Position numbers and translations under genes: made by a program. A DNA stretch of 41,418 bases from Patescibacteria group bacterium. Its GTDB lineage: Bacteria; Patescibacteriota; Minisyncoccia; Moranbacterales; UBA2206. The DNA is taken from NCBI GenBank assembly GCA_038063775.1, contig JBBTUK010000009.1, positions 21,379-62,796 on the forward strand, in the 5' to 3' direction. The notes beneath the pieces are model-generated. The model did not search any database and was not told the DNA's origin. It worked only from the letters and a program-made list of their open reading frames with translations. Below, piece after piece: positions 1,193 to 39,695 of this stretch (positions are counted from its first letter, which is position 1; the number at the start of each line of letters is the position of its first letter).

Positions 1193-1268
1193 CCCGGTAG
1201 TAGAATTTTGACTTATTTATTTACTAAATTTTCTCCCGGAGAAAATTGGTCAAAATTTCACTACCGGG
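1193..1268 (-). repeat. palindromic MITE-like element, subfamily A (76 bp), flanked by CATA/CATA (TATG on the gene strand)
   Basis: Arms are cccggtagtagaattttgac ... gtcaaaatttcactaccggg, with an internal hairpin aattttct-ccgg-agaaaatt. It is nearly the reverse complement of the copy at 18832-18907. It abuts the uvrB ATG. Confidence 0.85.
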
Positions 1269-2553: not shown

Positions 2554-2625
2554 CCCCGTAGTGAATTTTCGGCCGTCCCGCCGTGGCGGGACTGAAAATA
2601 TAAAAGCCGAAAATCTACTACCGGG
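2554..2625 (+). repeat. palindromic MITE-like element, subfamily B (72 bp), flanked by TTGA/TTGA
   Basis: Arms are ccccgtagtgaattttcggc ... gccgaaaatctactaccggg, with an internal GC hairpin gtcccgc-cgtg-gcgggac. The TTGA flanks are at 2550-2553 and 2626-2629. Confidence 0.85.
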
Positions 2626-5021: not shown

Positions 5022-5079
5022 TTGTTTTTGGATATATAATAGAAACACAAAATTCTTCTTCGTATAACCGCAACTTATG

Positions 5080-5190
5080 CCCAGTAGTGATCCGCCGAAA
5101 GTCCGATTGATTACTACTGATTAAACTAATAAAGCTACTAACTTTTCAATATATTTTCTGCCGTTAAAAAATAGGCGGACTACTACTGGG
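5080..5190 (+). repeat. palindromic MITE-like element, subfamily A variant (111 bp), flanked by TATG/TATG
   Basis: Arms are cccagtagtgatccgcc ... ggcggactactactggg. The TATG flanks are at 5076-5079 and 5191-5194, and the second contains the ATG of the next gene. Confidence 0.8.
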
Positions 5191-5191
5191 T

Positions 5192-6214
5192 ATGAAAAAT
5201 CTTTCGAGTCTGGATAAGAGTAATTTTAGACAAGTTATCATTGATTTCCCCAAGCAGTTTGAGCAGGGCTTTAAATTGGCAAAGGGCATAAAAATTAAAG
5301 GGCAATTCAATTCCTTAGTTGTTTCCGGCATGGGTGGATCTTCCTTGCCCGTTGATGTTTTGAAAATTTATTTGAAATCGCTTTATCGGAAAAATCCCAA
5401 AGAAAACAAACTGTTCACAGTATTTCAAAATCGCACTTACTCTCTTCCCCGCGAAGCCTATTACGGCGGACTTAATTTTATTTCTTCCTATTCCGGAACA
5501 ACCGAAGAAACTATTTCATCTTTAAGGGAAGCAATAAAAAACGAACTGCCGATTGTCGGATTTACATCGGGCGGAAAACTGGCCGAGCTCTGCCAGAAAA
5601 ACAAAATTCCCTGCGTAATATTTCCCAAAGGGATCGAGCCCCGCTCTGCTACCGGATATTTCTTCGCCTCAATGCTACAAGTTTTGGCTAATGCCGGAAT
5701 GATTGAAGATAAAAGCCGGGAATTAATAGCTCTGTCAAAAAATCTGCGGAAAGCTGTTTTGGAACTGGAGCTGGAAGGCAAAAAGATCGCCCAAAAACTC
5801 TTCGGAAAAACGCCCGTTATATACGCCCCCGCCAAGTTCGGAGCGCTGGCGATGATTTGGAAAATAAAAATCAACGAGAACGCCAAAACGCCGGCTTTTT
5901 ACAATGTCTATCCGGAACTCAATCACAACGAAATGGTCGGCTTTACTCTGCCACAAGGAAAATTCCATATCATAACGCTTATGGATAAAAATGACCACCC
6001 GCAAAATATCAAGCGGATGAAAATAACTGCCGCATTGCTTAGAAAAAAGGACATAGAAACAAATCTCATTGAAATGACTGATAAAAATATGTTTGACACT
6101 CTTTTTTCAACGCTTCTTCTCGGCGACTGGGTTTCCTATTACCTGGCTCTTCTCTACAAGCAAGACCCCGGCCCCGTCAAAATAGTAGAGGATCTGAAAA
6201 AACTGCTGGCTTAA
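5192..6214 (+). CDS. bifunctional phosphoglucose/phosphomannose isomerase (SIS domain)
   Basis: 340 aa with the SIS-type motif VVSGMGGSSLP. The architecture matches the archaeal/bacterial PGI/PMI family. Confidence 0.8.
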   Translation: MKNLSSLDKSNFRQVIIDFPKQFEQGFKLAKGIKIKGQFNSLVVSGMGGSSLPVDVLKIYLKSLYRKNPKENKLFTVFQNRTYSLPREAYYGGLNFISSYSGTTEETISSLREAIKNELPIVGFTSGGKLAELCQKNKIPCVIFPKGIEPRSATGYFFASMLQVLANAGMIEDKSRELIALSKNLRKAVLELELEGKKIAQKLFGKTPVIYAPAKFGALAMIWKIKINENAKTPAFYNVYPELNHNEMVGFTLPQGKFHIITLMDKNDHPQNIKRMKITAALLRKKDIETNLIEMTDKNMFDTLFSTLLLGDWVSYYLALLYKQDPGPVKIVEDLKKLLA

Positions 6215-15102: not shown

Positions 15103-15131
15103 ATTATACACGATATCAAGGATTGTGTCAA
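15103..15131 (-). promoter_or_regulatory. consensus sigma70 promoter TTGACA-N17-TATAAT
   Basis: The minus strand reads TTGACAcaatccttgatatcgtgTATAAT. The TTGA of the -35 box is the left flank repeat of the GIY-YIG element. Confidence 0.7.
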
Positions 15132-15417
15132 CCCCGCACTAACTTTCGTTCAAAGACTTTTTGATTCTTCTTCTTAATTGCGCCCAGGCTTGTCCAAATT
15201 GCTTTATTTGCTTTTCTCTTTCTTTTGCGTCCCACTCGGATAAATACGCTTCATAATACATGAGTTTCCAGATGTGTCCTTTTGTAGAAAAAGAATTTCC
15301 CTCATTGTGGTCAAAAAGTCTTTTCCGCAAGTTACTACTATATCCATAGTATAGCTCCTTGCGCTCATTTCTCAGGACATAAAAATAATGCATACAATAA
15401 CGAAAGTTAGTGCGGGG
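15132..15417 (-). mobile_element. 286-bp element with perfect 19-bp terminal inverted repeats carrying a GIY-YIG ORF, flanked by TCAA/TCAA
   Basis: The inverted repeat ccccgcactaactttcgtt (15132-15150) pairs with aacgaaagttagtgcgggg (15399-15417). The TCAA flanks are at 15128-15131 and 15418-15421. The ORF fills 255 of the 286 bp. Confidence 0.75.
15139..15393 (-). CDS. GIY-YIG nuclease family protein (single catalytic domain, COG2827/UPF0213-like)
   Basis: 84 aa: MHYFYVLRNERKELYYGYSSNLRKRLFDHNEG...YYEAYLSEWDAKEREKQIK, matching the GIY...YIG...R...H/N...E pattern. The stop and last four codons lie inside the inverted repeat. Confidence 0.85.
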   Translation of the reverse strand: MHYFYVLRNERKELYYGYSSNLRKRLFDHNEGNSFSTKGHIWKLMYYEAYLSEWDAKEREKQIKQFGQAWAQLRRRIKKSLNES

Positions 15418-17793
15418 TCAAGTGGCCGTTAGCGTCATACCAATGGAATAGCTGTCCGCTTGTTGCTGGGCCGGTATATCCTGGGTCAGCGCCACGCCCG
15501 TAAAGTCCCAGTAACAGCCAAAGGAGGTGGTGGACGTTAGAAGAGTTACACTGTTGCCCGCGTCAAAATAGGCAGCTGATCCTTTGGATGGTGAGACGGC
15601 GCCGCAACCCCCCTCCGGCGTTATTGTTCCCGCGCTGGGATCCACCCTTAGCCGGCCGTTAGCCGCCGTGTCATTGAAATCATAATTATAGGTTGCGCCT
15701 TGCCAAAGAGTCGAGGCGCCGCCGGTCGCTGCAATCGTAAGGTTCCAGTTTCCATTAGCTGTAGTATTGGTCAATCGAATTTTCTGGCTGGCCACGCCGA
15801 GCGTTCCAGCGGAGGTCTGTCCCACCCAGTCGAACGTTTCGGCGGAAAAAGAAACGGACGGACTGCCCACCGGTGTACCGCCCGAATCCACGATGTCCAC
15901 TGACAGCGTACCCGCAGAAAGCGTGATGGTCCCGGAAGAATAATCATTCACTTGGGAATTCACTCCGTCACTGACCAAGCCGTAGACATAATAGCTGCCC
16001 GCCGACATGCCGGCCGTATCCCAGGAACAAGTCGCTCCCGTGCCTTCGCCCGCCGAGGCGCAAGCACCCGTAATGGCCGTACCGTCCAGACCCGAACCAT
16101 TGGAATCCCAATAAAAGACCGCGTTAACGATGTTGTCAGAATCAGCCAAATCATAAGTGATGTTATACAGAGTGCCGATGGGCACGCTGTCACTCACCCC
16201 ATCCGGCTGGCTGACGGTGAGCGTCGGCCGGGCGTTGATGGTCACCACTCCCGGTGAATAGTCGCTGACTTCAGTGTTGACCGTGTCATTGACATCCCGG
16301 CCGTAAATATAATAAGTGCCGGGCGAGACGCCGGTCGTGTTCCAGGCGCAAGTGCCGCCCGAGGCTTCGCCCTGGTTCTGGCAGGCGGCAATGGAAGTGC
16401 CGTTGAGCCCCGTACCATCCGTGTCGTAATAGAAATCCACGGTAACCGTGCTGTCGGTGTCGGCCAGATTGTAAGTTATGTAATTATAAGTGCCGTCCTG
16501 GGCGATGGTATCACCGGTGCCGTCAGGCTGAGTGACAGTTAAAGTCGGCGCGTCGTTGATCCGGATCCGGCCGGTTGAAACATCAACGACATCCGGATTC
16601 ACTCCGTCATTGGCCACGCCATAAATATAGTAATACGTACTGAGACTCATGCCCTCGCCAAGAGGGCTGAAGGAACATGTTGCGTTGGTTCCCTCAATTT
16701 GGTTTTGACAGCTTGAGATGGCCGTGCCCCCGGCTCCGTTGCCGTCCGTTTCATAGTAAAAATCGGCGGTAGCGGTTCCCGCGTCGGCCAAGTCATATTG
16801 GATCTGGTAATTGCCTCCGTCCGCTACGTCCGTGTCCGAGGCTGGATTATCCACCGTGACGGTCGGCGGAGTATCTGCATAAGGTCTTAAAGCCAAGGTG
16901 ACCGCCGTCCACGAATCGCTTGTGGTGGTCGTGCCCCCACCGGCAAATGCCGCCGGATCATAGGCGCCGGAAGACCAGGTCGTATACCCGGCTCCGACCA
17001 TGCCGTCTTGGGTGTCATTCCCATTTGCCGCGCGGAAATCAGTGAGATATGACGCGGTGTAATTGCCGCCCGTTGAGCCGGATCCGGCGCCGGCTACATA
17101 AATCCACGCTCCGGAGGAAGTGGGCGTAATCGCCCCCGGATTTACAACCCGAGTATTTATCGCTCCGGCAGTGACTGCCGCGACATCAAGGGGCGTGCCT
17201 GCATCAACATTCCGGAACACATGAACAGACCAGGCGCGGCCGCCAGACGCGTCGCCGCCCGCGAGAATCACCGAGGTTTCCGGCGTCCCCGGCATAAACC
17301 GATACGCCACTCGGAGATTTGAGTCGTAAGAGTCGTTCTGATACAGCTCCGACCCGGCCAGTGTGTAGGCCGTTCCCCCACTATTATTGATCGTCAGCGC
17401 CTTGTTGGCTGTGTCCCCATTGGAAAACGCGACAATGACCAGATCGTCGGCCGCTGGCGTTGAAGCACTGCCGTTGGTGAGCGAAAAATTAACCGTCGTG
17501 TTGCCGCTAACACCGGCAGAGCTGCCCACCTGGCCTCCCACATAGGATACTGCCGCCAGAGCGGTGTGAATCCTTAACTTTTCCGGCAAATCCCGGATAG
17601 ACGCGTATTTATCCACGATGTCCGAACCGCTATCTTTTTGCGTAAGCCAAATTCTGTCCACGATTCCCCGGGTGCTGATGTAGGAATCTACCAGGGTCTT
17701 TACGAGATAAAAAGAGGCGTTGGAAAAAACCAGTCCTGTAATTACCAGAAATACTACCAGGAATCTGAATATTTTTCCGCTTCGTTTGCCCAT
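15418..17793 (-). CDS. large membrane-anchored surface protein: N-terminal TM, unknown ~280-aa domain, 3 tandem ~105-aa repeats, C-terminal WxL-like module
   Basis: 791 aa. The C-terminal 164 aa (GTLSVDIVDSGGTPV...NWNLTIAAT...CYWDFTGVALTQDIPAQQQADSYSIGMTLTAT) are paralogous to the two small proteins downstream. The TGA stop lies within the TCAA flank of the GIY-YIG element. Confidence 0.8.
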   Translation of the reverse strand: MGKRSGKIFRFLVVFLVITGLVFSNASFYLVKTLVDSYISTRGIVDRIWLTQKDSGSDIVDKYASIRDLPEKLRIHTALAAVSYVGGQVGSSAGVSGNTTVNFSLTNGSASTPAADDLVIVAFSNGDTANKALTINNSGGTAYTLAGSELYQNDSYDSNLRVAYRFMPGTPETSVILAGGDASGGRAWSVHVFRNVDAGTPLDVAAVTAGAINTRVVNPGAITPTSSGAWIYVAGAGSGSTGGNYTASYLTDFRAANGNDTQDGMVGAGYTTWSSGAYDPAAFAGGGTTTTSDSWTAVTLALRPYADTPPTVTVDNPASDTDVADGGNYQIQYDLADAGTATADFYYETDGNGAGGTAISSCQNQIEGTNATCSFSPLGEGMSLSTYYYIYGVANDGVNPDVVDVSTGRIRINDAPTLTVTQPDGTGDTIAQDGTYNYITYNLADTDSTVTVDFYYDTDGTGLNGTSIAACQNQGEASGGTCAWNTTGVSPGTYYIYGRDVNDTVNTEVSDYSPGVVTINARPTLTVSQPDGVSDSVPIGTLYNITYDLADSDNIVNAVFYWDSNGSGLDGTAITGACASAGEGTGATCSWDTAGMSAGSYYVYGLVSDGVNSQVNDYSSGTITLSAGTLSVDIVDSGGTPVGSPSVSFSAETFDWVGQTSAGTLGVASQKIRLTNTTANGNWNLTIAATGGASTLWQGATYNYDFNDTAANGRLRVDPSAGTITPEGGCGAVSPSKGSAAYFDAGNSVTLLTSTTSFGCYWDFTGVALTQDIPAQQQADSYSIGMTLTAT
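15913..16869 (-). repeat. three in-frame tandem ~315-bp coding repeats (aa ~309-627)
   Basis: The repeat units are PTLTV(T/S)QPDG...Y(N/D)LAD.D....V.FY(Y/W)D..G.G..GT.I..C......G..C.W.T.G...G.YY.YG...D.VN, each with two conserved Cys. Confidence 0.8.
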
Positions 17794-18767: not shown

Positions 18768-18831
18768 AGTGATGCTTATATTATACAATAATTTGCCAGA
18801 ATAAGCATTTTGATGATAGTTTATATATATG

Positions 18832-18907
18832 CCCGGTAGTGAAATTTTGACCAATTTCCTCCGGGAGGAAATTTTTATATTATTTAAGTCAAAATTCTAC
18901 TACTGGG
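18832..18907 (+). repeat. palindromic MITE-like element, subfamily A (76 bp), flanked by TATG/TATG
   Basis: Arms are cccggtagtgaaattttgac ... gtcaaaattctactactggg, with an internal hairpin aatttcct-ccgg-aggaaatt. The TATG flanks are at 18828-18831 and 18908-18911, and the second contains the trpS ATG. Confidence 0.85.
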
Positions 18908-18908
18908 T

Positions 18909-19919
18909 ATGAAAAGGATTTTTTCCGGCATTCAGCCGTCAGGCAACTTGCACCTGGGCAATTACCTTGGGGCCATCAAAAACTGGGTCAAGCTTCAAAA
19001 CGAGTATGACTCTATTTTTTGCGTGGTGGATCTCCACGCCATTACTGTTCCGCAAGATCCGGAGGAACTCAAGAAAAAAATCATCGAAGTGGCCAAAATA
19101 TATTTGGCCGCCGGCATAGACCCCAAAAAATCGGCGATTTTCATCCAATCGCATGTCCCCGAACACGCGGAGTTGGCGTGGATTTTGAATACTTTGGCCA
19201 AGATTTCCGAAATGGAACGAATGACCCAATTCAAGGATAAATCGGCCAAGAATAAAGAGGGCGTTGGTATGGGACTGTTCGATTACCCAGTGCTGATGGC
19301 CGCCGATATTCTTCTTTACGATACGCAAGTCGTCCCGGTCGGCGAAGACCAGCTGCAACACATTGAAATAACCAGGACATTGGCCAAAAGATTTAATACT
19401 CGTTTCGGCGAAACATTTGTGATTCCCAAAGCTTATTATATGGAAAATGAAGGAATGCTTGCCCGCCAAAGCCTTGGCGTCGGCGGGAGGATTATGGGAC
19501 TGGATGATCCAGCTAAAAAAATGAGCAAGTCGGCCGAGTCGGAATACAATTACATCGCCCTTACGGATTCCGAAGAAGCGGTGCGCAGAAAAATCAAAAA
19601 GGCCGTGACTGACTCCGGAACCGAAATAAAATATGCTGATGATAAACCGGCACTTAAGAATTTGATAAATATCTATTCTCTCTTGTCCGACAAAAAACCG
19701 CAGGAAATTGAAAAATTATATAAAGACAAAGGATACTCTGAATTTAAAACTGACTTAGCTGAAGTAATTATAAATTTCCTGAAACCTTTTCAGGAAAAAT
19801 ATAACGCTCTCTCGGACGAAGAAGTTCTAAAAATCCTCCGGGAAGGCGCGGAAAAAGTTCGTCCGCTGGCTAATAAAAAACTGGAAGAAGTAAAAAATAA
19901 AGTTGGATTTATTTTGTAA
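18909..19919 (+). CDS. trpS: tryptophan--tRNA ligase
   Basis: 336 aa: IFSGIQPSGNLHLGNYLGA (HIGH region) and KMSKS (KKMSKSAES). Confidence 0.93.
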   Translation: MKRIFSGIQPSGNLHLGNYLGAIKNWVKLQNEYDSIFCVVDLHAITVPQDPEELKKKIIEVAKIYLAAGIDPKKSAIFIQSHVPEHAELAWILNTLAKISEMERMTQFKDKSAKNKEGVGMGLFDYPVLMAADILLYDTQVVPVGEDQLQHIEITRTLAKRFNTRFGETFVIPKAYYMENEGMLARQSLGVGGRIMGLDDPAKKMSKSAESEYNYIALTDSEEAVRRKIKKAVTDSGTEIKYADDKPALKNLINIYSLLSDKKPQEIEKLYKDKGYSEFKTDLAEVIINFLKPFQEKYNALSDEEVLKILREGAEKVRPLANKKLEEVKNKVGFIL

Positions 19920-19924
19920 AATTT

Positions 19925-22553: not shown

Positions 22554-22579
22554 TGATTGAATTTAAGATTTAAACTTGA

Positions 22580-22652
22580 CCCCGTAGTAGATTTTCGGCT
22601 TTTATTTTTTTCAGCCCCGCCGCGGCGGGGCGACCGAAAATTCACTACGGGG
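22580..22652 (-). repeat. palindromic MITE-like element, subfamily B (73 bp), flanked by TTGA/TTGA
   Basis: Arms are ccccgtagtagattttcggc ... accgaaaattcactacgggg, with an internal hairpin gccccgc-cgcg-gcggggc. It is approximately the reverse complement of 2554-2625. Confidence 0.85.
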
Positions 22653-22681
22653 TTGACTTCCGCTAAATAGTCTGCTAAACT
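22653..22681 (+). promoter_or_regulatory. candidate promoter TTGACT-N17-TAAACT
   Basis: The -35 box begins with the right-hand TTGA flank of the element. It points into the structured region 22688-22830. Confidence 0.55.
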
Positions 22682-22687
22682 ATATTC

Positions 22688-22830
22688 AACCTAGAAAGTC
22701 CCATGATTCTCTCGCTTTGGTCCGCTGAAGTTTTAACGGAAGCGACCCTCGACCCGCCTACGCTATTGCTTCGGCGCGGTAAGATAAGAGAATATAATCC
22801 GCAAGGAGAGCTTTCTTTGGGGACTTTTTT
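22688..22830 (+). ncRNA. unclassified structured RNA candidate (~140 nt) upstream of rpsF
   Basis: A long-range closing stem pairs agaaagtccc (22693-22702) with ggggacttt (22819-22827), followed by a T6 run. An inner ctctc/gagag pairing, a GC-UUCG-GC tetraloop hairpin and a ggtccgct...agcgacc hairpin are also present. I recognise no family. Confidence 0.4.
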
Positions 22831-22836
22831 AATCCT

Positions 22837-22919
22837 ATAACCCAAAACCTGGAGCCCAAAACCTACAAAAATCTGATTTTAAAATAAATTAGGTTACGGG
22901 TTATGGGTTACGGGTTACG
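22837..22919 (+). promoter_or_regulatory. leader module: C/A-rich segment + AT spacer + 4 tandem GGTTAYG heptamers, ending 8 nt before the rpsF ATG
   Basis: ataacccaaaacctggagcccaaaacctac...ggttacgggttatgggttacgggttacg. It is homologous to the module upstream of recA (26726-26829, minus strand). Confidence 0.6.
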
Positions 22920-22927
22920 TGAATTAA

Positions 22928-25311: not shown

Positions 25312-25455
25312 TTAGAAAAGTCCCAAGTTTGAGAAAAGCGTGAGCGTCATCAGAGGCATCAGCGCCACCAGAATTTCTATCCCGGTCTGTTCGGCTTGTT
25401 TGGCCTCCTGTTCTCTCTTTTCGCACTCCGGACATTCGTGCTTTGGCTCATCCAT
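25312..25455 (-). CDS. 47-aa protein with a CPEC motif and C-terminal TM helix, unknown function
   Basis: MDEPKHECPECEKREQEAKQAEQTGIEILVALMPLMTLTLFSNLGLF. The ORF-track start at 25542 lies inside the promoter -10 box, so I trimmed it to ATG 25455. Confidence 0.45.
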   Translation of the reverse strand: MDEPKHECPECEKREQEAKQAEQTGIEILVALMPLMTLTLFSNLGLF

Positions 25456-25540
25456 ATTTTTGTGTTTCCCCGCCAAGGCGGGGTAATTAATAATTAAAAA
25501 GAAAAAACGGGCATTCACCCGCTTTTTACTTTGTATACCC

Positions 25541-25569
25541 ATTATACACTATTTTCACCCTCAAGTCAA
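25541..25569 (-). promoter_or_regulatory. near-consensus promoter TTGACT-N17-TATAAT
   Basis: The minus strand reads TTGACTtgagggtgaaaatagtgTATAAT. The TTGA of the -35 box is the flank repeat of element 25570-25704. Confidence 0.65.
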
Positions 25570-25704
25570 CCCCGTAGTAGATTTTCGGCTCTTGCAAAGA
25601 TGTTAAGCTGCAGCTGACAGATATACTGCAAGGTAAAATATTTTATAATTTTTGTGGTATTTTTTAAGTCCCACTGGCGGGACGGCCGAAAATTCACTAC
25701 GGGG
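25570..25704 (-). repeat. palindromic MITE-like element, subfamily B long form (135 bp), flanked by TCAA/TCAA
   Basis: Arms are ccccgtagtagattttcggc ... ggccgaaaattcactacgggg, with an internal hairpin gtccc...gggac next to the GTGA arm. The right flank lies 2 nt from the recA stop. Confidence 0.8.
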
Positions 25705-25710
25705 TCAAGT

Positions 25711-38803: not shown

Positions 38804-39547
38804 CTAATCCATTTTATTCCAGTCAAAGTTCCAGGGGTCGTCCTTTCTTCCAGGAGCTATTTGGCTATGGCCTAGAACATATTTTATTTTATATCGCCCT
38901 TTTATATATTTTAGCAGATTATTGAGAGAATCATATTGTTTATCGGTAAAATTGCCATCCTTGGTGTTCATGAGCTCAATACCGATAGAAGTCTCATTAA
39001 CATTGGTCCGGCCGTCCGGCAAACTACTCACTCCAGCATGATATGCAATGTTTTTTTCCTCGACCAGACGATAGATCGTTCCGCCCCGGTCAACAAGATA
39101 GTGGGCAGAAACTCCATAGCTTTCATATTCCTTGATAAGCCCCTTGACGCTGAAAGGGTCGGCTCCCAAAGCGTCATAGGATGAATGGATAATTATAGTG
39201 TCAATGGTCCGACCGGCAGATTTTTCAAATCCGCTGGATAGAAGCTTGTCAACAATCGCGAATTTTGGGGACGAATTATTAGTGTTTTTCGGCGGTTCGG
39301 TCAGTACTGGTTCTTTTTTAATTTCGCCCTCCGTTTTTTCCGGAATTTTTTCCGGTTCGGGAATAATTTCTGCATTCTCGCTTTCCGGCTGGCTGTTTGA
39401 TAAAATATCGTCTGTTTGATAATTATTTTCCAGTATTATTTCTTTCTTGCTCGTGGCGGAAAATAACGGCAGCCAAAAAACGCCGGTTATGATAACCAGT
39501 AGCGCCATTGCTATTGCTATTGTTTTATAGTTCAGATATTTTTTCAT
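38804..39547 (-). CDS. N-acetylmuramoyl-L-alanine amidase (Amidase_2/PGRP family), membrane-anchored
   Basis: IDTIIIHSSYD...AHYLVDRGGTIYRLV...AYHAG...IGIELMN...GHSQIAPGRKDDPWNFDW. I set the start at ATG 39547 (MKKYLNYKT) because the ORF-track start at 39592 lies inside the repeat 39549-39691. Confidence 0.85.
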   Translation of the reverse strand: MKKYLNYKTIAIAMALLVIITGVFWLPLFSATSKKEIILENNYQTDDILSNSQPESENAEIIPEPEKIPEKTEGEIKKEPVLTEPPKNTNNSSPKFAIVDKLLSSGFEKSAGRTIDTIIIHSSYDALGADPFSVKGLIKEYESYGVSAHYLVDRGGTIYRLVEEKNIAYHAGVSSLPDGRTNVNETSIGIELMNTKDGNFTDKQYDSLNNLLKYIKGRYKIKYVLGHSQIAPGRKDDPWNFDWNKMD

Positions 39548-39548
39548 T

Positions 39549-39691
39549 CCCGGTAGTAGAATTTTGGCGTTTACACATGCTAGATTGACCAAAATTCCAT
39601 GAAATTAAAAATTTAAATTAGTTTACCGATTATACATGTCATATTTTTAAAGTTTTTTTCCAAAAAACTTAGCCGAAATTTCACTACTGGG
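39549..39691 (-). repeat. palindromic MITE-like element, subfamily A long form (143 bp), flanked by CATT/CATT (AATG on the gene strand)
   Basis: Arms are cccggtagtagaattttggc ... gccgaaatttcactactggg, with an internal hairpin aagtttttt-gg-aaaaaaactt next to the GTGA arm. It lies between the traX-like stop (TAG, then 1 nt) and the amidase ATG. Confidence 0.8.
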
Positions 39692-39695
39692 CATT

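Follow-up and report, generated by a model that had tools for sequence, protein, structure and literature searches.

Hairpin mobile elements at leaderless start codons and -35 boxes of Patescibacteria, and their relatives encoding a candidate mobilising GIY-YIG nuclease

RESULTS

Seven hairpin elements in one Patescibacteria contig

We analysed a stretch of 41,418 nucleotides (nt) from a Patescibacteria group bacterium (GenBank assembly GCA_038063775.1, contig JBBTUK010000009.1, positions 21,379 to 62,796; the whole stretch is referred to as the window), which contains seven short hairpin elements and one longer relative encoding a small nuclease of the GIY-YIG superfamily. The original prediction, made from the sequence of the window alone, described four palindromes lying exactly on start codons, each bracketed by a repeated TATG or AATG. 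Re-reading the sequence located all four palindromes and their brackets where they had been placed; the distal ATG of each opens its open reading frame (ORF), and -10-like boxes precede the proximal ATG as described, for example at trpS. The number of copies had been underestimated, as three further elements flanked by TTGA or TCAA were overlooked, and all seven (7/7) are bracketed by a matched 4-nt direct repeat. The window elements are labelled c1-c7 and loci from other assemblies L001-L210.

c1, 18832-18907, plus strand: 76-nt element between TATG repeats at 18828-18831 and 18908-18911; trpS ATG at 18909
Extended -10-like box, 18814-18822, plus strand: TGATAGTTT, 6 nt before the proximal ATG at 18829; host leaderless trpS promoter
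c2, 5080-5190, plus strand: 111-nt element between TATG repeats at 5076-5079 and 5191-5194; PGI/PMI ATG at 5192
c3, 1193-1268, minus strand: 76-nt element between TATG repeats at 1269-1272 and 1189-1192; uvrB ATG at 1191-1189
c4, 39549-39691, minus strand: 143-nt element between AATG repeats at 39692-39695 and 39545-39548; amidase ATG at 39547-39545
c5, 2554-2625, plus strand: 72-nt element between TTGA repeats at 2550-2553 and 2626-2629
c6, 22580-22652, minus strand: 73-nt element between TCAA repeats (TTGA on the plus strand) at 22653-22656 and 22576-22579
c7, 25570-25704, minus strand: 135-nt element between TTGA repeats at 25705-25708 and 25566-25569

Element c3 is a near-twin of c1, c2 has a different inner stem (TCCGCC/GGCGGA), and the proximal ATG of c4 lies 1 nt past the TAG stop of a TraX-like gene. 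The genes behind c1, c2 and c4 are backed by Pfam (tRNA-synt_1b, bact-PGI_C and Amidase_2, respectively), the second encoding a PGI/PMI-type isomerase and the third an N-acetylmuramoyl-L-alanine amidase. The remaining three copies abut promoters. The right repeat of c5 starts TTGACC-N17-TAAGCT, with a holin-like gene (ATG at 2679) downstream; on the plus strand, c6 is followed by TTGACT (22653-22658)-N17-TAAACT (22676-22681), the rpsF-ssb promoter; and the right repeat of c7, situated immediately downstream of recA, starts TTGACT (25569-25564)-N17-TATAAT (25546-25541).

The terminal motifs CCCRGTAGTGA and CTACTACYGGG each match the window seven times at up to one mismatch, against 0.43 and 0.27 matches expected from shuffled sequence, and none of 100 shuffles reached seven. 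Two independently made assemblies of this organism (L001 and L197) contain identical elements, which are therefore not assembly artefacts.

Orthologous sites without an element carry a single 4-mer

Relatives whose TrpS proteins are 87%, 84% and 83% identical to that of the window at the amino acid level (L189/L190, L191 and L192/L193) have a single TATG and no element at trpS. They keep the promoter (..AATTTGCCAAAG..TAATGATAAC.., one TATG, then the ORF), in which TAATGATAAC is the conserved counterpart of the -10-like box of the window. A further relative, with TrpS at 88% identity (L188), is occupied. A syntenic contig of 21 kb belonging to a related species (L196; RecA 89%, TrpS 87%) lacks all of the elements; in this species trpS again has a single TATG, the region downstream of recA has TTGACT-N17-TATAAT once, overlapping the recA stop, and the region between ychF and rpsF has TTGACG-N17-TAAACT once. 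A single 4-mer at these orthologous sites points to insertion with a 4-bp target duplication, and by this comparison three of the seven window copies (c1, c6 and c7) are documented insertions. The proposal of insertion into the initiation codon, with the duplication rebuilding the ATG, is thus supported, and the empty sites that the original prediction suggested seeking exist at three loci.

More distant trpS genes do not share the palindrome of the window, as an ancient conserved structure would have led one to find. At 72% and 60% identity they carry elements on the ATG with lengths of 141 and 88 nt, one of them with the repeat ATGA. In all, three species have an element on the trpS start codon, and neither the elements nor their repeats are the same. 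The differing lengths and repeat, together with the empty sites of closer relatives, argue that this start codon has been hit recurrently. One gene family of 183-189 residues has elements in four species at 51-84% amino acid identity, a pattern that could be old or recurrent.

Several features adjoin these sites. In a Moranbacteria relative (L195:7012-7260; RecA 96%), the position downstream of recA is taken by an element whose left end follows TTGA and is complete, and whose right end (..CTACTGCTG..) is degraded and merges with unrelated DNA; decay or rearrangement of a copy at the -35 site that c7 occupies may account for it. Beyond the promoter regenerated by c7 (minus strand, ~25440-25540) the window has two hairpins, CGGGTGAATGCCCG followed by a T-run and CCCCGCCTTGGCGGGG, and then a small ORF (MDEPKHECPECEKREQEAKQAEQTG..) that is conserved in L196. 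The long leader of rpsF, encoding S6 (plus strand, 22682-22927), contains blocks conserved with L196 (ATATTCAACCTAGAAAGTCC.ATGATTCT.TCGC ... CCGCAAGGAG). This leader may be an autoregulatory leader of the S6:S18 type, and it has no match in Rfam.

Copies are dispersed through candidate phyla radiation genomes

Scanning a genome collection with a pattern for the left arm returned 106 loci. Those with two ends come mostly from metagenome-assembled genomes (MAGs) labelled as members of the candidate phyla radiation (CPR), namely Moran-, Nealson-, Portnoy-, Wildermuth-, Kaiser- and Wolfebacteria, Paceibacteria, Parcubacteria and 'Saccharibacteria'; a few are labelled Bdellovibrionales, delta proteobacterium or Pseudomonadota (labels unconfirmed). 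Single-end matches outside the CPR, in a gammaproteobacterium and in Rhodospirillaceae, Acidobacteriota and delta-proteobacterium MAGs (the last being L018), are taken to be chance matches of the pattern. Phages were considered as vectors and discarded, since none of the 13 IMG/VR hits (L198-L210) has a right arm and 12 of them are copies of one phage sequence that holds the left-arm 20-mer by chance; a hit to the single-arm pattern therefore needs a second arm before it is counted.

There are 95 complete elements, 57-316 nt long, and 73 of them have a perfect 4-nt direct repeat. When flank partners were shuffled, the mean was 7.3 perfect repeats and the maximum 16. Most of the other 22 complete copies match at three of the four bases or have a 3-nt ATG repeat, and the apparent orphan ends turn out to have a partner end that has mutated, such as CTACTAACGGGG or CTACTGCGGGG. 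The matched flanks on which the original prediction was built thus extend well beyond the window. With strands collapsed, the commonest repeats were as follows.

TATG/CATA: 26 copies
TTGA/TCAA: 15 copies
CTTG/CAAG: 6 copies
TTTA: 4 copies
TTTG: 4 copies
AATG: 3 copies
TATA: 3 copies
CTGG: 3 copies

More than 14 distinct 4-mers are matched left and right, and TTGA and TCAA, TATG and CATA, and CTTG and CAAG each occur with the same arm orientation. The elements are dispersed within genomes, with seven copies in the 41 kb of the window and several loci per MAG elsewhere (e.g. JAGUVE01, MHMW01 and CAZJOI01). Tandem and nested copies exist. Four sit in the 4-nt apical loop of another element's small GC hairpin (L070, L099 and L102 with the repeat CTGG, and L053 with CGGG), the duplicated 4-mer being the loop itself; unpaired or extruded DNA may be preferred as a target. 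Long autonomous copies carrying a classical transposase were also considered and set aside, as no pair of ends 0.45-8 kb apart with matching repeats was found among the 106 loci.

Start codons and -35 boxes are the preferred targets

An ATG-type flank is present in 39 elements, and in 38 of these the ATG opens an ORF of at least 60 codons leading away from the element. When empty sites are reconstructed, a TAnAAT or TGnTAnAAT box usually precedes the ATG by 6-8 nt; in these genomes at large, TAnnnT is most frequent 6-7 nt ahead of first ATGs and Shine-Dalgarno-like words are weak. Because of the position of this box, we read the host genes as leaderless. A crude null model, in which elements insert at any TATG/CATA and insertions within genes are then lost, predicts ~24% of insertions at start codons (359 first-ATG sites versus 1155 other non-coding sites), compared with the ~96% observed. 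The association with start codons is therefore not peculiar to the window.

The initiation codon is a genuine target in these data but not the sole one. The TTGA or CTTG of -35 hexamers is the target in about a quarter of all copies, including three in the window: the repeats of c5-c7 are the first four bases of a -35 hexamer, which is rebuilt on the gene side. The duplicated 4-mer also slides around its landmark. At start codons it covers -1 to +3 in the majority of cases (TATG or AATG), +1 to +4 in others (ATGA, ATGG) and +2 to +5 in yet others (TGAA, TGGA), where the last base of the arm provides the A or G of ATG or GTG; -35 boxes have TTGA duplicated, or CTTG after a shift of one base. 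This sliding suggests that a position is targeted rather than a 4-mer, and the preference for +1, -35 and occasionally -10 suggests that the positions in question are promoter landmarks. A rule of sticky-end inheritance, in which the 4-mer travels with the element and sets both target and orientation, was rejected as the sole rule because c6 (TCAA) shares the arm and interior orientation of c5 and c7 (TTGA), and because the duplicated window slides (TATG, ATGA and TGAA; TTGA and CTTG).

The arms are defined by pairing and a terminal motif

Folded as single strands, six of the seven window elements form one long hairpin (z -4.4 to -7.3); folding of the 143-nt amidase copy, c4, is not significant (z -1.8). 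The stem consists of an outer part (CCCnGTAGT/ACTACnGGG), a fixed two-base mismatch and an inner part of 9 bp whose sequence varies among copies while pairing is always kept. The 20-bp arms start CCCnGTAGT, and the mismatch (G.T and A.C) falls at positions 10-11 in every copy. Apart from these two fixed mismatches, the arms of the short elements (57-157 nt) pair at 94-100% of positions, with compensatory changes at positions 4, 13, 17 and 19. One rare copy (L089:3074-3201) has perfectly palindromic arms (GTAGTAG..CTACTAC) without the usual mismatch, and may serve as a natural control for what the mismatch does. A known RNA family was rejected as an explanation: in Rfam 15 the elements have no match at the gathering threshold or at E<=1, and only two tRNAs in the search pass gathering.

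The original prediction held that all copies share one orientation relative to the downstream gene. This is correct for its four copies and fails for the arms in general, since the polarity of the arm mismatch relative to the interior or ORF goes both ways at ATG sites (27 versus 11), even among close relatives within one genome. Independently of the arms, the interior has a polarity of its own at ATG sites, with the small GC hairpin proximal to the promoter and the A/T-rich part proximal to the gene in 28 of 29 scorable copies; at -35 sites the count is 6 versus 6. These figures come from a test of GC asymmetry, which replaced a shared 7-mer test whose signal was swamped by A/T-rich low complexity. 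We infer selection on the sequence that enters the host gene's transcript and its translation, together with an occasional flip of the segment between the arms.

Full-length relatives encode a minimal GIY-YIG nuclease

The original prediction named no partner gene. The window also contains a unit of 286 bp, a putative autonomous element, in which a single ORF fills the space between perfect inverted arms.

Coding relative, 15132-15417, minus strand: 286-bp putative autonomous element, 15128-15421 with repeats
Nuclease ORF, 15139-15393, minus strand: 84-residue GIY-YIG nuclease filling the space between the arms, with its TAG stop inside the right arm

The 19-nt arms, CCCCGCACTAACTTTCGTT (15417-15399) and AACGAAAGTTAGTGCGGGG (15150-15132), are of the type CCCCGCACTAAC, and the TTGA repeats occupy 15421-15418 and 15131-15128. 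The first TTGA includes the TGA stop of an upstream gene of 791 amino acids, and the second starts TTGACA-N17-TATAAT (-10 box at 15108-15103). The upstream gene (15418-17793, minus strand) is fast-evolving and of a Big/IPT-domain surface type, its best homologues being 48-69% identical over parts. A search through this gene for an empty counterpart of 15132-15417 was unproductive, as the gene has no close orthologue.

Other copies bearing an ORF are L009 and L090 (313-316 nt) and one unit in L035, each with a single ORF between its arms. The arm-flanked ORFs encode a GIY-YIG nuclease (PF01541; E 1e-11 to 4e-18, the window ORF scoring 1e-11). A metagenome scan with a profile of four sequences yielded at least 271 relatives of the nuclease, and 68 of their loci could be examined. 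At ~60 of the 68 the ORF lies between recognisable inverted arms of GTAG or CAC type; it starts 15-40 nt past the left arm, and its stop often falls within the right one. The other eight loci have weak or atypical repeats. Most coding units are 283-325 bp long and encode nucleases of 84-96 residues. A perfect 4-nt repeat was scored in 33 metagenomic coding units by automatic boundary calls, and in 16 of these it is TATG. Units 88-90% identical to one another are found in unrelated flanks.

Two types of arm occur, a GTAG type seen in c1-c7 and a CAC type (CCCCGCACC.. or CCCCCACACC..) to which the window unit belongs. When the proteins were split into two groups by average-linkage clustering, the groups coincided with the arm types, 37 GTAG versus 21 CAC, with no cross-assignment. 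In addition, two ORF-bearing loci, L090 and L136, have arms that match those of c5-c7 (subfamily B) exactly over 20 nt; L136 comes from the same aquifer.

A sequence search of the PDB with the 84-residue protein gave UPF0213 proteins BH0048 (1.4e-8) and EF2693 as best matches, followed by SLX1. An AlphaFold model (pLDDT 94.8) is closest in fold to 1zg2 and 1ywl and then to Slx1 (6seh, 4xm5 and 7cq2), with I-TevI only after these. Positions Y5, Y15, G17, R25, H29 and E48 are among those invariant in 40 relatives, and the protein is a bare catalytic domain with no appended DNA-binding domain. By its sequence matches and predicted fold, the nuclease belongs to the Slx1/UPF0213 branch of the GIY-YIG superfamily. 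In a library clustered at 50% identity, 2156 representative clusters match it at E<=1e-3. Some relatives are longer (P0189, P0191, P0196, P0208, P0210, P0211 and P0163; 230-290 residues, with the GIY-YIG part at residues 1-85) and could be read-through products or gene-call fusions with a host ORF; one library protein of 2544 residues has 11 partial matches to the nuclease.

No DDE, HUH or recombinase protein is encoded in the 41 kb of the window, and no transposase or REP-associated tyrosine transposase (RAYT; REP, repetitive extragenic palindrome) gene was seen, by eye or ORF content, in the window or the 106 element loci.

A second family of small GIY-YIG genes (~96 residues) has flanking hairpins of its own (TGTCATTCCCGnnnnnnCGGGAAT ... 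ATTCCCGCnnnnGCGGGAATGACA; L192:2589-2879 and L060:1687-1980). A Moranbacteria relative has a member inserted in the gap between its convergent trpS and PGM genes, a gap of only 5 nt in the window (19920-19924); no 4-nt repeat was seen. This second family suggests a wider occurrence of minimal GIY-YIG genes flanked by hairpins.

Elements at start codons are positioned to use the host promoter

The nuclease ORF is always co-directional with the host gene at ATG sites. Having landed on a leaderless gene, an element inherits the promoter and the 5'-terminal AUG, as the layout of these loci indicates, and this inheritance would drive expression of the nuclease. At six loci and in L035, all of the CCAGGTAGTGAAAATTCGAC lineage, the host ATG shares its frame with the nuclease (MPGSENS.xIMF.YVY..). 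In other lineages an 8-codon ORF starting at the host ATG stops at a TGA that is separated by 2 nt from the start codon of the nuclease (TGAttATG). Several lineages have a left arm that translates as an N-terminal extension of the nuclease ORF.

In RNA folds computed for the leaderless transcripts, both AUGs are locked in the stem (-35 to -38 kcal/mol). The upstream ORF (uORF) opened by the proximal AUG has a median length of 15 codons. Translational coupling to the host gene was rejected as a rule, since a stop-start overlap (AUGA) occurs only in c1. The uORF ends before the host AUG in 29 of 32 elements and in 26 of 32 when the interior is reversed, a comparison that does not discriminate.

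DISCUSSION

A family of hairpin elements with a candidate mobilising nuclease

We conclude that the palindromes are probably short members, resembling miniature inverted-repeat transposable elements (MITEs), of a family of hairpin mobile elements in Patescibacteria that is mobilised by the GIY-YIG nuclease of its full-length relatives. The parts of this conclusion differ in strength. The empty sites, matched repeats and flanking genes show hairpin elements that insert with a 4-bp duplication and strongly prefer leaderless ATGs and -35 boxes. Among the loci compared, the ORF-bearing relatives encode nothing other than an Slx1-type GIY-YIG nuclease, and the clade of this nuclease co-varies with the type of arm. 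That the nuclease mobilises both the long and the short forms is likely on the strength of this association.

How it would do so is more speculative, and we offer the following scheme of recognition, cutting and joining tentatively, as somewhat less probable than an even chance. The structure-specific nuclease would recognise the extruded hairpin or cruciform arms through the terminal motif and the mismatch, and would cut with a 4-nt stagger at the base of the stem and at the target, the landmarks being chosen as distorted or unwound DNA. Host ligase and polymerase would complete integration, and short elements would be moved in trans. On landing at a leaderless start codon, an element would come to lie at the 5' end of the host mRNA, where the promoter and ATG of the host would express the nuclease either by in-frame fusion or by stop-restart coupling. 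The host ORF would then start at the regenerated AUG, at the base of the computed stem; a ribosome loaded at the 5'-terminal AUG probably opens the stem first.

Several observations weigh against this interpretation. Its weakest point is chemical: a GIY-YIG hydrolase forms no covalent intermediate and cannot perform strand transfer alone, so integration would need other factors. The sole coding copy in the window is CAC-armed while the seven short elements are GTAG-armed, the cognate GTAG coding copy being found only in other genomes and other Hainich contigs. No empty site was found for any ORF-bearing unit, and about half of these units have no perfect repeat under automatic boundary calls. 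The two-way polarity of the arm mismatch relative to interior and ORF fits no simple model, the uORF comparison gives no separation, and some insertions shared by the same gene across species could be old and retained. Finally, the search pattern fixes arm positions 1-3 and 5-12, so that invariance there is partly a matter of ascertainment.

Alternative explanations

The most serious alternative is that the short elements are MITEs dependent on a conventional transposase (DDE, HUH/RAYT or recombinase) whose gene lies in another part of the genome, the GIY-YIG gene being a passenger or a selfish gene lodged in the loop. Arms resembling terminal inverted repeats, a 4-bp duplication and multi-copy spread are classic traits of DDE-dependent MITEs, the host genome was seen over 41 kb only, and the difference in arm type between the coding and short copies of the window sits comfortably with this idea. 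Elements do insert into the loops of other elements, which makes a lodged gene conceivable. A lodged gene, however, would not be expected to fit the arms exactly in ~60 of 68 unrelated metagenomic loci, to have a phylogeny that follows arm type perfectly, or to use the left arm as an N-terminal extension. Neither a transposase nor a matched pair of ends 0.45-8 kb apart turned up in the 106 loci or the window, and the inner stem is free to vary if paired, unlike terminal repeats bound by a protein. We therefore consider a conventional transposase unlikely.

We regard a single-strand mechanism, as in IS200/IS605 elements and their palindrome-associated transposable elements (PATEs) or in REPs, REPINs and their RAYTs, as very improbable. 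Under such a mechanism the hairpin would read two sites, a target 4-mer on the left and the element's own cleavage site on the right, so that the repeat would be no true duplication. The hairpin architecture with conserved mismatches, the GTAG at arm positions 5-8, recalling the 5' end of REPs, and the different flanking 4-mers of the window subfamilies (WATG versus TTGA) would suit it. It does not account for more than 14 different 4-mers matched on both sides, nor for the near-identical c5 and c7 (TTGA) and c6 (TCAA) in the same orientation, where a strand-specific guide predicts otherwise. Moreover, both ends form one joint hairpin instead of one subterminal hairpin each, and the partner gene is GIY-YIG, with no Y1/HUH gene in the window or flanked by arms. 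The least credible alternative is that the palindromes are ancient, vertically inherited cis-regulatory structures, such as 5' leaders or insulators, and not insertions. A stable RNA hairpin overlapping both AUGs, an interior polarity that is constant at start codons (28 to 1) and orthologous genes carrying elements in several species are what such structures would produce; as an account of origin, the idea is already contradicted by the empty sites of close relatives at three loci and by the different elements and repeats at the same trpS ATG. Copies that precede -35 boxes are not part of the transcript that they would regulate, nested and tandem copies and coding relatives exist, and Rfam gives no match. 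Exaptation of individual copies is possible.

Relation to known elements

As small, non-coding sequences with inverted arms, a target duplication verified by empty sites and many dispersed copies, the short elements have the properties of MITEs, except that, where longer partners share these ends, the one protein encoded is a GIY-YIG nuclease and not a recognised transposase. Correia/NEMIS elements of Neisseria are multi-copy MITEs that fold into one hairpin, lie adjacent to genes, are co-transcribed with them and alter promoters. They share with the elements described here their length (~60-150 bp), lack of coding capacity, copy number, whole-element hairpin, short duplication and location at the 5' ends of genes. 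They differ in duplicating TA rather than 4 bp at start codons or -35 boxes, and our elements have arms set by structure plus an 11-nt terminal motif and coding relatives that are GIY-YIG. To our knowledge, the presumed partner of Correia elements, a DDE-type enzyme, has never been found.

The genes of homing endonucleases such as I-TevI and T4 Seg resemble the present case in that the only gene of a selfish element is a GIY-YIG nuclease. These enzymes have ~200-250 residues with DNA-binding modules and belong to a UvrC-like branch, and their genes spread by copying into cognate alleles through homologous repair, with no inverted arms and no duplication (Dunin-Horkawicz et al. 2006, PMC1564403). 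The nuclease reported here is instead an 84-96-residue protein of Slx1/UPF0213 type, between hairpin arms, at many unrelated loci with 4-bp repeats. Slx1/UPF0213 proteins (YazA/YhbQ-type, COG2827) are its best matches in sequence and fold, and the cutting of branched and stem-loop DNA by Slx1 fits a hairpin-armed element. We found and know of no description of such nucleases as arm-flanked or present at multiple loci. Selfish members of the superfamily lie outside the Slx1 branch, and bacterial Slx1-like proteins are regarded as vertically inherited repair factors (PMC1564403).

REP/REPIN-RAYT systems and IS200/IS605 PATEs share with these elements hairpin repeats, a small nuclease-type enzyme that recognises structure, a GTAG beside the stem and intergenic abundance; they differ in using a Y1 HUH transposase, in making no target duplication and in having one hairpin per REP or insertion sequence end. 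In our elements the two ends pair together, 4-mers match on both sides, no strand-specific target is apparent, no Y1 HUH TnpA is present in the window and the arm-flanked ORFs are PF01541. A GTAG tetranucleotide at the 5' end of REPs was reportedly noted by Messing and colleagues in 2012; the arms here have GTAG at positions 5-8, yet are not palindromic on their own. Rickettsia palindromic elements (RPEs) are likewise palindromic mobile repeats of a reduced-genome bacterium, intimately tied to coding sequence. RPEs insert in frame within ORFs and are translated, whereas the present elements insert at the initiation codon and regenerate the ATG. We know of no duplication rule or partner enzyme established for RPEs.

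Full-text literature, of which our coverage was incomplete so that an earlier description is possible, yielded nothing describing such elements. On present evidence, the class is apparently undescribed and categorically new. We lean slightly towards regarding it as a new superfamily of prokaryotic transposable elements, in which a minimal structure-specific nuclease of Slx1 type is the one protein encoded and acts on the hairpin or cruciform arms of its element. Such elements would home to promoter landmarks, above all the +1/ATG of leaderless genes, would thereby take over the host promoter and start codon for nuclease expression while restoring the ATG of the host, and would have given rise to short derivatives that settled at the 5' ends of housekeeping genes across the CPR.

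Implications

If the nuclease mobilises these elements, it would represent a new catalytic class beside DDE, HUH, serine and tyrosine recombinases and Cas1. The coding units would also lower the size limit for an autonomous mobile element to ~300 bp with a protein of fewer than 100 residues; at 283-325 bp they would be, if autonomous, the smallest autonomous mobile elements known to us. They would be selfish elements that target the initiation codon itself, a site normally thought untouchable, which is tolerable because the mRNAs are leaderless and the 4-bp duplication rebuilds the ATG. A minimal hairpin-recognising nuclease that makes cuts with a 4-nt stagger could, if confirmed, be of practical interest.

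For the CPR, the elements would affect annotation, notably of gene starts, of small 'GIY-YIG family' ORFs and of spurious N-terminal extensions and fusions. They also bear on how genomes of ~1 Mb tolerate the expansion of repeats, and they provide a natural system for the study of translation of an ORF that lies behind a 5'-terminal AUG and a 20-bp stem.

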